IMG/VR virus record: IMGVR_UViG_3300046007_007030
Source: a virus
Direction: 5' to 3' (one strand)
Length of the DNA: 64,000 bases
In this document: piece by piece, positions 53,163-58,644 of the stretch
How the letters are laid out: every line of letters begins with the position of its first letter
Position numbering within the stretch: the stretch's first letter is position 1
Made by a program: the position numbers and the translations under genes
Notes under the pieces: generated by a model
The model's database searches: none
What the model saw: the letters and a program-made list of their open reading frames with translations, nothing else
Told to the model about the DNA's origin: nothing

Positions 53163-53600
53163 TTACACCTTTAGTGTTGACTTGAGCATCCAACCGTGCT
53201 TGGCGTGGATGTCGATCCTGTCTTGCAGGAAGTTAGCGAGGCCGTAGACCTTCTGCTTCTCGGCCTCGAGGAATGCGGCCTTCAGCGTCTCCATGACCTT
53301 GTCGTTGTCGTCCTTTAGCTTAGACACCATCGCCACAGCGGCAGGAATGGAGGTCTCGTCATCAACGGTGGCCAGCTGACCGAATCGAGTGAACGAGCCT
53401 GGCGCGTATGCGTCGAGCGTACGGATCTGCTCGGCGATGGCGTCGGTGGCCAGCCACAGCTCATTGTAGATGCCTCCAAAGAAGGCGTGCATCTCGTTGA
53501 AGTTTGGACCGATCACATTCCAATGAAACATGTGAGCCTTCAGGTACATGGCGAAGGTGTCAGCGAGGACTACCTTCATCTTTTCGACTAGCTCTTCCAT
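53163..53600 (-). CDS. dps: Dps (DNA-binding protein from starved cells, ferritin-like)
   Basis: YLKAHMFHWNVIGPNFNEMH..F...D.IAEQIR...HAKHGWML ferroxidase motifs. Confidence 0.92.
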   Translation of the reverse strand: MEELVEKMKVVLADTFAMYLKAHMFHWNVIGPNFNEMHAFFGGIYNELWLATDAIAEQIRTLDAYAPGSFTRFGQLATVDDETSIPAAVAMVSKLKDDNDKVMETLKAAFLEAEKQKVYGLANFLQDRIDIHAKHGWMLKSTLKV

Positions 53601-53619: not shown

Positions 53620-54795
53620 TTACCAAGCTCTGCAAGACCAGTACTTGGCCTTCCACTTCGGACCGGGGTTGACGTCGCAGCCGTGACGGGCGCGGAATGA
53701 CTTACGGGCAGCGGGATTGCTCTTACGAATCCTCATGTTCGGATCGCCGAAGCGAACCTTGACTACGTTGCCCTTCGAGTTCTTCACATAGACGGCACGC
53801 TTCTTGTTCTCACCTGGAGTAAGGAACGGCTTGTTGAGCGACACCTTGCGGCCTCCACTTTCTGCTTCTTCCTTGACGCAGTTCGGTACAGGATTACCGT
53901 TTCTGCCCTTCTTCATGCCCTCCATCCTATATCCGGTCCAGCACGGACCCTTCTTCTCGTGAATGACGGCGTATACCTCGACTTCCTCGGACTCTTCACC
54001 CCAGTCCTCGTACTCTACGTCTTCTTCTAGGTTGAAGAACTCCTCGGCGTAGCCGAGCTCCAGCTCCTCCACGAACTCCGAGAATGACTTTATGGAGTCT
54101 TCCTCGCGCAGGTCCTTGTCGGCGCCGTGATATGTACCCTTGCCCTTGGTGATGTACGAGTTGACTCTGGCCATGCCCCACTGCTGAGGAGTGGTTCCCG
54201 GCCTGTGACCGGTCCTCCAAGCGGCGACGCCCCTCTTATACACGGTCCTCAGGGTACCTAGGGAGACGCCAGACGACTTGGCCTTCTTAGCAAGAGCGCT
54301 GCCGGCCTCCTCGTCGATCATCTCTTCCTCGAGCTCGACTTCCTCACCGAACTTGGCGCGATACGCCTTCGTGTGCTTAGACTCCTTCGTCTTAGCATTG
54401 GCGTCGCCCGGCGCAGGCTCGTAGGCAGCCGGATCTTTCGTATCCATCTTGGACGTCTTGGCCCAATGCGCCTTGCGTGCAGCTACGGTAGACTTTGATA
54501 GACCCTTGTAGTAGGCCTTGTTCTCGGAGATATAGTCGCCAAAGAATTGATCGAAGTGTGACACGATTCCACCTTTTCCACCTGGTCTGTAGGCGGCAGC
54601 TCCTGGATCGCTGGCTACTGACAGGTAGTTGATGTTTGGAGGGTTGATGACTATCTCTACGCGGTTCTTGCCCTTGCCGACGGTAACAGTACCCTGAGGT
54701 ATGTTCACCTTCTGCTGGTTGGCCGGCTTCTGTGAGTCGTCACCCTTATTCGGGATCTTCTCTGAGGCGCCCTGGTCTTGCTTTGCGTCTGCCAT
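53620..54795 (-). CDS. Modular basic/acidic putative internal head polyprotein
   Basis: Basic modules (VYKRGVAAW..GHRPG..PQQW..ARVNSY; PCWTGY...VPNCVK; VRFGDP...RKSFRARH.C...YWSC) separated by Glu-rich linkers; late box at 54824. Confidence 0.65.
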   Translation of the reverse strand: MADAKQDQGASEKIPNKGDDSQKPANQQKVNIPQGTVTVGKGKNRVEIVINPPNINYLSVASDPGAAAYRPGGKGGIVSHFDQFFGDYISENKAYYKGLSKSTVAARKAHWAKTSKMDTKDPAAYEPAPGDANAKTKESKHTKAYRAKFGEEVELEEEMIDEEAGSALAKKAKSSGVSLGTLRTVYKRGVAAWRTGHRPGTTPQQWGMARVNSYITKGKGTYHGADKDLREEDSIKSFSEFVEELELGYAEEFFNLEEDVEYEDWGEESEEVEVYAVIHEKKGPCWTGYRMEGMKKGRNGNPVPNCVKEEAESGGRKVSLNKPFLTPGENKKRAVYVKNSKGNVVKVRFGDPNMRIRKSNPAARKSFRARHGCDVNPGPKWKAKYWSCRAW

Positions 54796-54845
54796 CTCTA
54801 AACCTTTGATTCTACTAGTACTGTATTTATGCTATAAGAATGTCT

Positions 54846-56330
54846 TCATCTCTTGACTTTTAACTTACCGGACTCTATGGCCTTCTTAATCCTATCAGCG
54901 TGACGAGCAGCTTCTTGCCTACTAAACATTGGACCGAGATGACGGTGTACTTCTTCTACGTCTCCCTTAGAAGACGCAGTCCTCAGGTTAGTGCCCGACA
55001 TACCATGAGAGCGATCACTGTCTTCCGGATGATGTATTTGGATCTCATCAAACTTTTTCTCTCCCATCTCCTTGATCTTACCAGCCTCGAGGGACTTCTT
55101 TAGACCATGCGCCCAATCGGCGCGATCGTGACCAACTAAGAGATGGAGTACCTTGCGACCACCCTCTGGCAACGAGTCGTGTGCTGCTCTGATAGTCTCA
55201 CCGGCAGACCCGACTACGTGAGTAGCTACTTTCTTCTTTCCACCCCACTGTCTGGCGAGTATGTCGGCCCTCTCTTTAGGAGAGTAGACGTCTGACTTAG
55301 CAGAGATGCCGACGTGTTTAGTGCCCGGTAGCTTCGCCATCGCTCCACCGAGGTCCTTAGCGTGACCCATGTGAGAGATAGGCGAGAATCCAGTCAGCGG
55401 CACTACTGAGGTGTGATGTGTCTCTTCAGCTTCTTCATTGATCGGATTCTGAATACCAAGAGTCTTACCGATGTGAGCGATGGCCTTGCTATGATCAGCT
55501 CCTTTCATCTTAGACACCGAGTCGGCGAACTTCTGATAGATGGCTGCGTGATGGTCAGGATGGACGTGATCTCTGATGAGTTCGGACAGTCCCTGGAATG
55601 AGTGAACCTTAGAAGCGTCTGCTTTTGGACCGAACAGAGCGCCAGTCACTTCGCTCGGATCAGATATGCCAGGATCGTCTTTAGCCGAGTCGCGCGAGCG
55701 CAAACCGTGAGTGATGGAGAACTTCTGATTGTTGGCCGAGGCGATGGCATTGAGGAGTACTTTATGATGAAGTCCCTTGATACCACGCTGACGATCTGAG
55801 AAGTTGGCGCTGTGCAAGAACTGCTCGCCAGGTGTAGGCTCGCCGGTCTTAGGATCTGTGTGAACACCCTCGAAGTCGAACTGGTGATGCTCGCCGTTCT
55901 CGTGCTTCATTACTGCCGAGACTTCATTACCGTGCTTCTTGGTGCCGACGACCATGTACTTACCGATGAGACGACCTGGGAACAGGAACTTCGCCATCTG
56001 ATTCTTGTGATCGTGATGCATCTGGGCATCGACGTCGCCAGTAGTCGGCATCGCATCAGCGACTGCCTTGTGCGGCAAGTTTTCGTCCATGAGCGAGCGC
56101 GTAGATCCGGCGTATGTAGAACCACTGCTCAGACCGGACTTTTTCTTGCCGAATAGGTGCTCGCCCGTCTCTTTATGGAACTGGTCGTGTAGGTCAGAAA
56201 GAGCGCCGTGGATGTCGGCTTGACGCTGAGACCTGTTTCGAGCCGTCACAACGAATGGAGCAGCAGATCCACCCTCGACAGATATATTGCCACCCTCGGC
56301 TAAGAGGAACTGTCCGAACGTCTTAATCAT
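54846..56330 (-). CDS. Two-domain nucleotidyltransferase: pol-beta-like N-terminal domain plus HIGH-superfamily (cytidylyltransferase-like) C-terminal domain
   Basis: Start reassigned to MIKTFGQFLLAE. AGST...GDVD...QFDF motif, then FSPISHMGH, LLVGHDR and MSGTNLR. Confidence 0.65.
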   Translation of the reverse strand: MIKTFGQFLLAEGGNISVEGGSAAPFVVTARNRSQRQADIHGALSDLHDQFHKETGEHLFGKKKSGLSSGSTYAGSTRSLMDENLPHKAVADAMPTTGDVDAQMHHDHKNQMAKFLFPGRLIGKYMVVGTKKHGNEVSAVMKHENGEHHQFDFEGVHTDPKTGEPTPGEQFLHSANFSDRQRGIKGLHHKVLLNAIASANNQKFSITHGLRSRDSAKDDPGISDPSEVTGALFGPKADASKVHSFQGLSELIRDHVHPDHHAAIYQKFADSVSKMKGADHSKAIAHIGKTLGIQNPINEEAEETHHTSVVPLTGFSPISHMGHAKDLGGAMAKLPGTKHVGISAKSDVYSPKERADILARQWGGKKKVATHVVGSAGETIRAAHDSLPEGGRKVLHLLVGHDRADWAHGLKKSLEAGKIKEMGEKKFDEIQIHHPEDSDRSHGMSGTNLRTASSKGDVEEVHRHLGPMFSRQEAARHADRIKKAIESGKLKVKR

Positions 56331-57297
56331 TATTCGCATTCCTCTTCTTGAAAGTCGGGTTCTCTTTCTCCGCCGCCTTGTACTTTCTGAAGCCCTCTGA
56401 CGTGACTTTGAAGCGAGGAGCATTTGAACCTTCGGGTGGATGGATGACCACTCCCTCAGACCCGCTACCCCACTTAGGAGTGATGTTGAGAGTCCTGACG
56501 TGAGCGTCTACTTTGTCTGACACTCTCTTCCTGATCTCGTCGAGCTTAGCCGTCTCGGCGGCCTTAGCTTCCTTGTTCTTCGGAATAGTGCGAGTGTTGA
56601 GAAGGTCGCGATTTATTCCCTTCATCATCTCTCGCTCGTCAGACACATCGACCGCGGTCGGCGGGGTATCGATCTTGTCGTCATCGAAGTTGATGTCATT
56701 GTTGCCAGCATTCTTGATGGCCTCGAGGTTGTGAAACTTGTTCTCTGGAAGTTGCGAATGGACGACGATCTTACCAACCCGTCCTATATGAGACGGGTCG
56801 TAAGAAGTACCAACGAATTTGACTTCGCCTTTCTTATCTTCCGAGGGGCGACCAAACGGAGTATAGAATAACTCGCCGCGGATCTTAGACTCGCCGCCTT
56901 CTTTAGCGGCCTGACTCTTTAGATAGGCCATGAGCTTCTTGTTCTTCATCAGCGTGTCATGCGCGTGATCGAACATGTTAGATCCAGTGAGATCGAGAGG
57001 CTTACCCGTCTCTTGAGACCTGCGAGTAGCGCGAGCAGCGTAGTCACCTGGCATCCTCATCTTCTCATTGCCTGAGCCAGAAGACTGAGTGTAGAAGCCG
57101 TCTTTGTCCCAGCCCATCATGTGAGTAGAGCCGTCGGTCTTCTCAGTCTTATTAGACATGTTTATCCTGCCTGAATTTAGCAGATTATGCAGGTCGTCGT
57201 GATGCATCGTGAGGATGTGCGGGAGACCCTGACGGATACCCTCAGTCAGGTAAGTGGACTCTATTAAAAACTCAGTGAATGATAGCATATTACTCAT
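56323..57297 (-). CDS. ATP-dependent RNA-ligase-like nucleotidyltransferase
   Basis: Ligase motifs in order: EKTDGS (I), GELFY (III), EGVVI (IV), RFKV (V). Confidence 0.6.
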   Translation of the reverse strand: MSNMLSFTEFLIESTYLTEGIRQGLPHILTMHHDDLHNLLNSGRINMSNKTEKTDGSTHMMGWDKDGFYTQSSGSGNEKMRMPGDYAARATRRSQETGKPLDLTGSNMFDHAHDTLMKNKKLMAYLKSQAAKEGGESKIRGELFYTPFGRPSEDKKGEVKFVGTSYDPSHIGRVGKIVVHSQLPENKFHNLEAIKNAGNNDINFDDDKIDTPPTAVDVSDEREMMKGINRDLLNTRTIPKNKEAKAAETAKLDEIRKRVSDKVDAHVRTLNITPKWGSGSEGVVIHPPEGSNAPRFKVTSEGFRKYKAAEKENPTFKKRNANND

Positions 57298-58276
57298 GTC
57301 CTAATACTTTTTTCATCTTCTCAATGTCCTCGTCTTTGCCGAGGTGTGTATCAGATTTATTAAGCTTTTTGATAGAGAATTGAACTGTCCTTGCATTGGC
57401 GTTGTCAGTCTTCTGTCTGACTCTAAATCTGCCGGAGCCCTGCATGGGAGAGAGATTGAGCCCATGCCTATCTTTCTTCTCGCTGGCACCAGCTCGAAAC
57501 GTACCGTGACTATCGACATGAAGAACGTCGACGTGGTGATCTCTTAAATATGCATGTGCGGGTGAAAGGTCGGTATCATCAGAGTGAAAACCAGACTTGT
57601 TGGTAGTTCCGACACTGCCCTCGGTGTGATTGAGATGGTCTATGAGCGACCTCTTCTTGCCATCGGCGCCGGTGACTGTGGCTCTCTCGACGTGAGAGGC
57701 ATACTCGGGTCTCCTCGCGCGGGCTTCGTCACTAATGTGCCATTTACCAGTTTTAGGGTGTCTGGTGAGAGTCAACTGACCGAAAGCAGTAGTCTTGATG
57801 TCAGACTTATGCTCACCAGCGACTTGTTGAGGATGACCTTCAGTTCCTCGAATTTTTTTAGCTTCTTTTTTTCTTTTATCAATTAGATGGAAGTCGTTTC
57901 CACCCGTAAATCCTGCGCCGCCGCCAGTCATAAGACCACTCTTAGAAAGCTTTGAGGCTAAAGCTCCCTCTTGTTCAAATCCTCTATTCGCGCGAGTGGT
58001 TGGTTTATTAAGCTTATTAGTTGGGACTTTAATTTTTTTACCATCGCTGCCGGATACCGTCGCATGATGTACTCCGTCTTCTATACTATGACCGTGTATA
58101 GTGACTTTATCTCCAGCTTTTAAGTGACCTACATTAGATACTAGTTCGTGTGATCCCTTAGCGTGTTTAGGACCCTTTGGAAGATATGGAGTAATATACT
58201 GCGCGGTATGCCTCTCGGCCGATTGACCGGAAGCTTTTATAGCGACTTCGGTGATATATTGTATGAAAGAAAGCAT
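57290..58276 (-). CDS. His/Lys-rich protein with a putative PD-(D/E)XK nuclease core
   Basis: NRGFEQE helix, GGNDF and GEHK motifs; capsid-targeting-like leader MLSFIQYITE. Confidence 0.5.
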   Translation of the reverse strand: MLSFIQYITEVAIKASGQSAERHTAQYITPYLPKGPKHAKGSHELVSNVGHLKAGDKVTIHGHSIEDGVHHATVSGSDGKKIKVPTNKLNKPTTRANRGFEQEGALASKLSKSGLMTGGGAGFTGGNDFHLIDKRKKEAKKIRGTEGHPQQVAGEHKSDIKTTAFGQLTLTRHPKTGKWHISDEARARRPEYASHVERATVTGADGKKRSLIDHLNHTEGSVGTTNKSGFHSDDTDLSPAHAYLRDHHVDVLHVDSHGTFRAGASEKKDRHGLNLSPMQGSGRFRVRQKTDNANARTVQFSIKKLNKSDTHLGKDEDIEKMKKVLGHE

Positions 58277-58304
58277 AGCATGGCCCCGATTTGATTATCT
58301 TCTT

Positions 58305-58311
58305 CTATTTA
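58305..58311 (-). promoter_or_regulatory. T4-type late promoter (ATAAATA)
   Basis: Intergenic. The same box precedes other late units at 4999, 21628, 26569/26577, 36256, 54824, 58642 and 62999. Confidence 0.65.
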
Positions 58312-58332
58312 TCAAATCTGGCGGAGCTGCTA

Positions 58333-58602
58333 TCAGTTATCGACCGCCTTGTAGTGCAGCTTGCGGTCATAAGAACCGACCATGACATGTCTCTCATGCT
58401 GGTCAGCGGCGTACAGCAGGACTGTACGCATGCGGGGATGTTCGTTCAGGAGCCGAACTGCCAGTTCCTTGGCGGCTGCGAGGCTCGGTACATCGGCGGT
58501 CCTGTTCCATCCACCCCTCGGCGTGAAGCCAGAGACGGTGTAGGAAACTGCTTGCGCCAGAATCTCTTGGTTGTGGCGATCGACTGCTCGTTCTATCTTC
58601 AT
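58333..58602 (-). CDS. Hypothetical protein
   Basis: GGAG RBS. Confidence 0.6.
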   Translation of the reverse strand: MKIERAVDRHNQEILAQAVSYTVSGFTPRGGWNRTADVPSLAAAKELAVRLLNEHPRMRTVLLYAADQHERHVMVGSYDRKLHYKAVDN

Positions 58603-58620
58603 GTCATTCTCCAAATGAAG

Positions 58621-58644
58621 ATAGGGAGGATCGCTCCTCCCTAT
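58621..58644. terminator. Intergenic hairpin ATAGGGAGGA-tcgc-TCCTCCCTAT
   Basis: Perfect 10-bp inverted repeat between ORFs. Confidence 0.55.

Follow-up and report, generated by a model that had tools for sequence, protein, structure and literature searches.

In bacteriophage T4, IPI, IPII and IPIII (the internal proteins) and Alt begin with a leader of ~10 residues, the capsid-targeting sequence (CTS), with an aromatic residue at positions 4 and 7, Ile or Leu at position 8 and Glu at position 10. In IPII and IPIII this leader reads MKTYQEFIAE; suppressor analysis has indicated that residues 4 and 7 govern targeting and residues 8 and 10 govern processing, and cleavage by the prohead protease gp21 takes place after L/I-x-E. 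The internal proteins are basic, expressed late and encoded in a hotspot of variable cargo genes; the known ones are small proteins without enzymatic function that inhibit type IV restriction, and Alt shows that enzymes can be CTS cargo. Head-packaged enzymes have also been predicted via MuF or portal fusions, and cytidylyltransferases are known from the virions of cyanophages. Here, we describe three neighbouring genes, A, B and C, in a 64-kb stretch of viral DNA (IMG/VR record IMGVR_UViG_3300046007_007030; this whole stretch is called the window), whose products share the leader type, cleavage logic, basic character, late-type promoter and variable gene setting of the T4 internal proteins, but are putative ligase, nucleotidyltransferase and restriction-endonuclease folds of 33–54 kDa, one of which is predicted to be split internally and some relatives of which are polyproteins of up to 2202 aa. 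On balance, we think it probable that A–C form a late operon of head-packaged enzymes, with end processing as their likeliest job, at less than an even chance.

The source genome is that of a T4-like myovirus: the window (G+C content ~51%) holds a gp32-type single-stranded DNA-binding protein, gp6/gp7/gp8-type baseplate wedge proteins, a primase and a ribonucleotide reductase, and comparison of gp32 places Stenotrophomonas phage DLP6, Sinorhizobium phage phiN3 and T4-like cyanophages nearest among cultured relatives (~50% identity). Genes A, B and C lie head to tail on the minus strand (Table 1). Only 1 nt separates the A stop codon (TAA) from the B ATG, the reading frames of B and C share 8 nt, and ribosome-binding sites (AGGA/GAGGA) precede both B and C. 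The B open reading frame (ORF) is open from 57297, and its start at ATG 57288 was chosen by means of the homologues, whose N-termini disagree with an MSNM start; likewise, a longer C ORF from 56423 was dropped since homologue N-termini favour ATG 56330. A reading of this stretch from its sequence only had described these ORFs, their leaders and a series of motifs, all of which we found in place. It had also proposed a single late promoter, in agreement with the GATAAATA box ahead of A and with the lack of any terminator-like site inside A–C; the late-type assignment is a consensus match only, accompanied by the enrichment of such boxes before the leader genes of related loci. Finally, the His-richness that it had noted is borne out, as His makes up 7.6%, 3.7% and 8.1% of A, B and C, respectively; the figure for 18 other large window genes is 1.2%. 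The isoelectric points (pI) of the three proteins are 8.9–9.8.

The leaders of A and B (F4, F7, L8 and E10 in B) agree with the T4 CTS at all four positions. The C leader is two residues longer in this phage (F5, F8, L10 and E12), and the consensus of the C family fits the T4 CTS exactly. The earlier claim of T4-like capsid-targeting leaders is thus upheld, as far as sequence goes, for all three families, whose consensus is M-(L/K)-(S/T)-F-K-x-(F/Y)-(I/L)-x-E. Among the real ORFs of the 64 kb, the strict leader pattern matches only the A–C genes. In AlphaFold2 (AF2) models, the predicted local distance difference test score (pLDDT) is below 50 at residues 1–20 of B and 1–8 of A, indicating that the leaders are unpacked.

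The homologues also bear on how the leaders are processed. In 115 of 120 C homologues, [LIVM]-x-E stands immediately ahead of the invariant GGN, and homologues of the C N-terminal domain that have no leader, many of which stand alone, start exactly at M-GGN. Since the domain occurs either behind a leader or starting at M-GGN, the same mature N-terminus appears to be arrived at in two ways. In B-C and other fusions, (L/I/V)-x-E is kept before GGN and the aromatic leader positions have decayed. Similarly, B has a second, conserved L-(T/S)-E site in which E16 is invariant, and [LIVM]-x-E directly precedes (G/S)IRQG in 89 of 120 B homologues. Stand-alone relatives of the C-terminal HIGH domain of C occur with and without a leader, and one of these leaders (MKTYREWLQE) resembles T4's own. 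Between the leader Glu and the HH..V(I/V)P start lie 3–5 residues, so that this Glu falls in register with the I-N-E299 site of C, which supports C being cut into two enzymes and agrees with the earlier proposal that the INE linker is a processing site. Overall, these comparative data argue for proteolytic release of the leaders, beyond mere resemblance to the CTS. It should be noted that five homologues of the N-terminal domain (P0375, P0426, P0445, P0458 and P0478) have M-GGN, a leader-like segment and then GGN once more, which looks as though an older start without a leader had later received one behind it.

The ligase motifs I, III, IIIa, IV and V of B, assigned by inspection, are all invariant in 30 homologues, and its AF2 model (pLDDT 87) has the nucleotidyltransferase fold. 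When structural relatives were ranked, RNA ligases came above DNA ligases, the best ones being enzymes that join RNA ends. We therefore regard B as a putative ATP-dependent lysine nucleotidyltransferase with an RNA-ligase fold, as judged from the model. It differs from the described ATP-dependent RNA ligases (Naegleria Rnl5, T. brucei REL1, T4 Rnl2, T4 Rnl1 and fungal Trl1) in its low identity (11–17%), in a long helical insert at residues 239–266, and in having no OB or Rnl2-type C-terminal domain; no DNA-binding domain is present either. Against the Pfam family RNA_ligase (PF09414), B scored 12.6 bits (E 0.15), below the cut-off of 27. Its neighbours in BFVD are annotated RNA ligases together with multi-domain 'cytidyltransferase-like' proteins of S-PM2 and of uncultured phages, and these multi-domain neighbours suggest that the association of ligase fold and HIGH domain is older than this clade.

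Gene C encodes two nucleotidyltransferase-like domains. A profile search of 1.8 billion proteins with C returned 817 relatives, among which each domain was also found alone. In the N-terminal half, none of 35 diverse sequences departs from G75-S76, D99-V-D101 or Q150-F-D152. The spacing from GS to DxD (22 residues) is longer than is typical of the pol-beta-like superfamily, and no significant Pfam or PDB sequence or profile match was obtained for this domain; its neighbour clusters in the Atlas carry PF01909 (NTP_transf_2, 46%) and PF14792 (DNA_pol_B_palm, 13%). As neither a profile nor a fold test succeeded, the pol-beta call rests on the motifs, and together with the neighbouring clusters these make the N-terminal half pol-beta-like. 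In the C-terminal half, the motifs S-H320-M-G-H323, G-x-D-R and S445-G-T-x-x-R450 are invariant or nearly so. The domain matches the 'cytidyltransferase' family phrog_3041 (E 3.7e-5), and its profile (alignment A4) aligns with gp154 of cyanophage S-CREM2 (hhalign 94.4%, E 8.9e-8, 181 columns), a protein that itself scores 22.3 bits against PF01467 (cut-off 21). The C protein of the window has no direct Pfam match for its HIGH domain. By these profile comparisons, the C-terminal half is homologous to the S-CREM2 cytidylyltransferase gp154.

The AF2 model of A (pLDDT 87) consists of an SH3-like domain followed by a predicted monomeric PD-(D/E)xK endonuclease fold of the HhaI/HinP1I type. The core fold of the HhaI/HinP1I/MspI group is recovered in the model, and the four residues E103, D128, E155 and K157 are invariant in 30 homologues. 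E103 lies on the first helix, D128 at the start of one strand, and E155 and K157 at the end of the next, an arrangement like that described for D34, E46 and K48 of HhaI. A differs from the monomeric type IIP enzymes R.HhaI, R.HinP1I and R.MspI in several respects: identity is 15%, the spacing is D-x26-ExK instead of SD-x11-EAK, an SH3-like domain and a packaging leader are added at the N-terminus, the gene belongs to a phage rather than to a host, and no methyltransferase partner was seen next to it. No Pfam match was found for A, including to PF11463 (R-HINP1I), the only pointer being an Atlas lead at 0.79, and its 87 homologues are metagenomic, every one of them named 'hypothetical'.

Taken together, these results support the sequence-only reading unevenly. 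Its call of a ligase is supported, both by the ligase motifs invariant in 30 homologues and by the RNA-ligase-like fold recovered in the AF2 model, and the catalytic Lys and Asp residues on which it depended are conserved, the key residues being invariant in alignments of 30–35 sequences. Of the dual nucleotidyltransferase, the HIGH-type part stands through the alignment with gp154, and the pol-beta part is backed by motifs and neighbour clusters only. The nuclease that it had proposed belongs to the expected fold class, PD-(D/E)xK; A resembles a monomeric DNA restriction endonuclease (HhaI) more than an RNA nuclease, and it is absent from most relatives.

Table 1. Features of the A–C locus and of the neighbouring gene D (positions in the window)
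Feature	Position	Strand	Characteristics
Late-promoter-like GATAAATA	58306..58313	-	~30 nt upstream of gene A
Gene A	57290..58276	-	328 aa, basic (pI 9.8), His-rich
A leader MLSFIQYITE	58247..58276	-	F4, Y7, I8, E10; predicted cleavage after E10
A SH3/Tudor-like beta-barrel, residues 27-93	57998..58198	-	AF2 model
A HhaI-like PD-(D/E)xK endonuclease domain (predicted), residues 97-324	57305..57988	-	invariant E103, D128, E155, K157
Gene B	56323..57288	-	321 aa, putative RNA-ligase-fold lysine nucleotidyltransferase
B leader MLSFTEFLIE and second L-T-E site	57241..57288	-	second site directly before conserved GIRQGLPHI
B catalytic core	56362..57240	-	KTDG (K50), GELF (E139), KFVGTSY (K157, F158), SEGVV (E278, G279), RFK (R292, K294)
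Gene C	54846..56330	-	494 aa, two putative nucleotidyltransferase domains
C leader MIKTFGQFLLAE	56295..56330	-	predicted cleavage before invariant GGN
C pol-beta-type nucleotidyltransferase-like domain, residues 13-299	55434..56294	-	G75-S76, D99-x-D101, Q150-x-D152; ends I-N-E299
C HIGH/cytidylyltransferase-like domain, residues 300-494	54849..55433	-	SHMGH, VGHDR, SGTxxR
Gene D	53620..54795	-	DUF5824 and basic Cys/Trp modules; internal leader-like IKSFSEFVEE

We then compared the locus with its relatives in 48 IMG/VR loci, to which the following counts refer. The strict leader was found in 87 ORFs of the coding strand and in none of 298 ORFs of the opposite strand; in at least one case (the near-identical loci L004 and L030) it is a false positive, an internal Met of a primase. 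ATAAATA occurs within 90 nt upstream of 28 of the 87 leader genes, typically at -36 to -42, against ~2% expected; overall, the coding strand has 196 copies and the opposite strand 40. Besides A–C homologues, the leader is borne by DxDxT HAD-like hydrolases (Pfam HAD families, E 1e-5 to 1e-2), by a protein of the GP88 family, by DUF6321 proteins and by members of several unknown families. As judged from these sequences, the leader can be joined to unrelated folds, and the locus is a hotspot for cargo genes.

Nearly all loci have B next to C, a synteny for which the sequence-only reading had called for a check, and the two are fused in several proteins of ~810 aa. In two loci, each C domain has a gene to itself, and the order of the two is swapped. 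A precedes B-C in only ~9 related loci, other leader proteins filling its slot elsewhere. The B-C pair is thus the conserved core and A is variable cargo. A P-loop kinase lies 3' of C in 12 of the 48 loci (Zeta_toxin 40.3 bits and AAA_33 35.8 bits, both above the cut-offs), and HAD-like leader proteins occur in 15, none being present in the window. These hydrolases are ~200–280 aa long (L008:2431-3054, L016:12420-13025, L031:15300-16139 and others). The most extensive combination is a single ORF of 2202 aa (L021:9983-16588, plus strand), which joins a leader, B, both C domains, an HExxH metallopeptidase-like segment, a Zeta_toxin/AAA_33 kinase, DUF5872 and DUF6321; it has the look of a polyprotein-like giant cargo, with many L/I/V-x-E sites. 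In another locus (L038:6327-8195), an open frame of 623 codons joins a HIGH domain with a leader straight to a P-loop kinase. The 'cut/heal/ligate kit' that had been proposed from the sequence is therefore better described as a conserved ligase/nucleotidyltransferase core with variable extras: A is absent from most relatives, and the window holds no healing kinase or phosphatase.

Among cultured phages, the closest parallel is the virion cytidylyltransferase of cyanophages (gp154 of S-CREM2; 'cytitidyltransferase' of S-SM2 and others), which has a homologous HIGH domain and a leader of the same type: gp154 starts with MKNFSSFLTE and the S-SM2 orthologue with MKSFFQFLSE. In cyanophages, the domain occurs alone or with other C-terminal parts, and in pelagiphage HTVC008M it is fused to DUF5824, whereas here it follows a pol-beta-type domain and is coupled to a ligase-fold gene. 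According to the S-CREM2 report, gp154 was found by mass spectrometry in CsCl-purified virions, and its authors state that kinases and cytidyltransferases are frequent in cyanophage virion proteomes, while cautioning that abundant proteins can contaminate CsCl preparations. In the passages of that report that were consulted, we found no mention of the gp154 leader as a capsid-targeting sequence. Two genes downstream of gp154, S-CREM2 gp156 (L058:3812-4525) is a PF01909 pol-beta nucleotidyltransferase, which is also in the virion list published there; hhalign shows no relation between it and the N-terminal domain of C, and it was rejected as a relative. The only cultured-phage homologues of that domain, and the only cultured-phage matches of C by search (22–26% identity, confined to the N-terminal domain), are in Campylobacter phage CP21 (CP21_014, L002:3980-5140) and Vibrio phage phiKT1024 (L001:3998-5152). 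The CP21 homologue has MKLSELILILE, a divergent leader, before GGN; that of phiKT1024 starts at M-GGN, with stop codons just upstream. The whole-C alignment matched HTVC008M gp130 weakly by hhalign (E 0.0019), and neither the region by blastn nor A and B by tblastn gave any match in cultured phages.

We consider it likely, and with more confidence than any function, that the A–C proteins are packaged, cleaved and injected. The leader would bind each protein into the prohead scaffolding core, where a prohead protease of the gp21 type (Peptidase_S77) would cleave it behind the Glu of the leader (E10 of A, E10 and/or E16 of B, E12 of C), and a second cut after I-N-E299 would free two separate enzymes from C. 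The basic, His-rich mature proteins would then remain with the DNA and enter the cell by ejection, which would allow them to act before any phage gene expression. At this time zero they might process nucleic-acid ends by extending and sealing them, the healing functions being supplied, in relatives, by the kinase and the HAD phosphatase. As for the substrate, our tentative suggestion, to which we give less than an even chance, is that the likeliest job is the end repair of RNA (e.g., tRNA cut by host defences) or of the incoming genome; the HhaI-like fold predicted for A points to DNA. End repair is preferred because a ligase, a kinase, a DxDxT phosphatase and a template-independent-type nucleotidyltransferase are the make-up of RNA heal-and-seal systems such as T4 Pnkp/Rnl1. 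The loci of relatives combine all of these, the kinase being of the AAA_33/Zeta_toxin type and the phosphatase HAD-like, and the comparable known systems are T4 Pnkp with Rnl1 in tRNA repair and bacterial Pnkp/Hen1; the T4 enzymes differ in being early cytoplasmic proteins without a CTS, and they belong to non-orthologous families. In its fullest and more doubtful form, the proposal would be that environmental T4-like phages package a modular end-repair kit (a ligase with template-independent and HIGH nucleotidyltransferases, and optionally a kinase, a phosphatase and a restriction-like nuclease), which is loaded by the internal-protein tag, cut by the protease, and mends what defences inflict on tRNA/RNA or on the genome as it enters, ahead of the first phage gene expression.

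Several observations weigh against packaged end-repair enzymes. No gp21-type protease (Peptidase_S77) was found in the 64-kb window; such a protease scores above the Pfam cut-off in all three near-complete (91–100%) relatives with B-C, and also in CP21 and phiKT1024. The homologue in phiKT1024 nonetheless has no leader. The window holds no homologue of a healing kinase or phosphatase either, so that the 5' kinase and 2',3'/3' phosphatase which stand beside the ligase in Pnkp/Rnl-type systems were not found there; most of the kinases in relatives have no leader, and the fusions of HIGH domain and P-loop kinase are just as compatible with cofactor synthesis. Three near-complete relatives have no A, and no 4-bp palindrome is avoided in the window, all 16 being present at observed/expected ratios of 0.62–1.15. 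On this account we reject the idea that the genome protects itself by avoiding sites, and an active, packaged HhaI-like DNase would need DNA modification or some other restraint. Moreover, Pfam and PDB sequence searches gave nothing significant for A, B or C. For the catalytic domains this also applies to the Pfam searches with 30 C homologues, the stand-alone domains and the large fusions, and PDB sequence and profile searches, run with single proteins and with alignments A1, A2, A4 and A5, stayed at chance level, the best pointer being the FAD-synthetase-like 3op1 (E 0.79). The homologues in protein collections, hundreds of them metagenomic, are all named 'hypothetical'.

Given that the HIGH domain belongs to the cytidylyltransferase/NMNAT-like superfamily, the packaged proteins might instead perform small-molecule nucleotide or cofactor chemistry. 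The HIGH domain, together with the P-loop kinase of relatives, would remake NAD+ or another dinucleotide, with nucleotide signals being made or capped by the pol-beta and ligase-like enzymes, thereby blunting NAD-depleting or signalling defences at entry. The joining of HIGH domain and P-loop kinase, seen in L038 and in the L021 polyprotein, is an architecture known from NadR and CoA synthase. Head-packaged NAD/ADP-ribose enzymes have been predicted in myoviruses, and the S-CREM2 paper speculates on an NMNAT-like role for the virion enzyme. However, the tightest partner of the nucleotidyltransferases is a ligase fold whose best structural relatives join RNA ends, HAD phosphatase, kinase and ligase form the classic set for end healing and sealing, and the loci showed no Nampt, Nudix or ART partner; we consider cofactor chemistry unlikely.

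Less likely still is an action on DNA throughout, in which A would cut host DNA or process ends or damage of the incoming genome, the pol-beta-type enzyme would fill or tail, and B would seal, as a kit for DNA attack and repair borne in the virion, much as large eukaryotic DNA viruses carry repair enzymes in theirs. The fold of A invites such a scheme, but A is missing from most relatives, RNA ligases rank above DNA ligases for B, which has neither an OB nor a DNA-binding domain, and the phage avoids no 4-bp palindrome. Finally, it is improbable that the leaders are not packaging signals and that A–C are ordinary late cytoplasmic enzymes sharing an N-terminal helix (for solubility, oligomerisation or regulation): homologues without a leader do occur, including in a phage that encodes a protease of the gp21 type, and the contamination caveat of the S-CREM2 authors applies, but the leaders fit the T4 CTS at experimentally defined positions, [LIVM]-x-E lies exactly at the boundary of the conserved mature N-terminus and is retained in fusions, the leader is portable across unrelated folds, and the promoters are of late type.

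A separate CATAAATA, at 54824-54831, belongs to the next gene, D, whose product matches DUF5824 in Pfam (E 1.4e-22). DUF5824 is joined behind a HIGH domain in gp130 of pelagiphage HTVC008M, gene D contains an internal leader-like segment, and its C-terminal Cys/Trp module is a separate leader-bearing gene of 167 aa in L017 (15486); for these reasons, as far as sequence comparison goes, gene D probably belongs to the same cargo set as A–C. It carries several L/I-x-E sites and resembles a fused, possibly protease-cut cargo protein. Just downstream, at 53163-53600 on the minus strand, lies a gene for a Dps/ferritin-like protein (PF00210, E 7.6e-20), which has no leader and is syntenic with B-C in most related loci. 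On the other side of the operon, a strong GC-rich hairpin of 10–12 bp at 58621-58644 directly follows another CATAAATA at ~58648, upstream of a small gene at 58333-58614.

A literature search found no description of CTS-tagged cargo with a ligase, pol-beta or restriction-endonuclease fold, nor of the rule by which leader and GGN would be processed, an absence that is no proof of novelty. What is known of CTS-bearing internal proteins comes from T4, where they are mainly small proteins that inhibit restriction enzymes, and here the same tag stands on whole putative enzymes of unannotated families. If the packaging of A–C is true, it would add to the kinds of protein that phages are known to inject along with their DNA, and would account for the cytidylyltransferases that recur in cyanophage virion proteomes. 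Moreover, injected cargo of uncultured T4-like phages could then be found by a simple sequence rule, M-x-x-F-x-x-F-(I/L)-x-E with a conserved mature N-terminus behind it. The ligase-nucleotidyltransferase core is itself a candidate source of new nucleic-acid enzymes.

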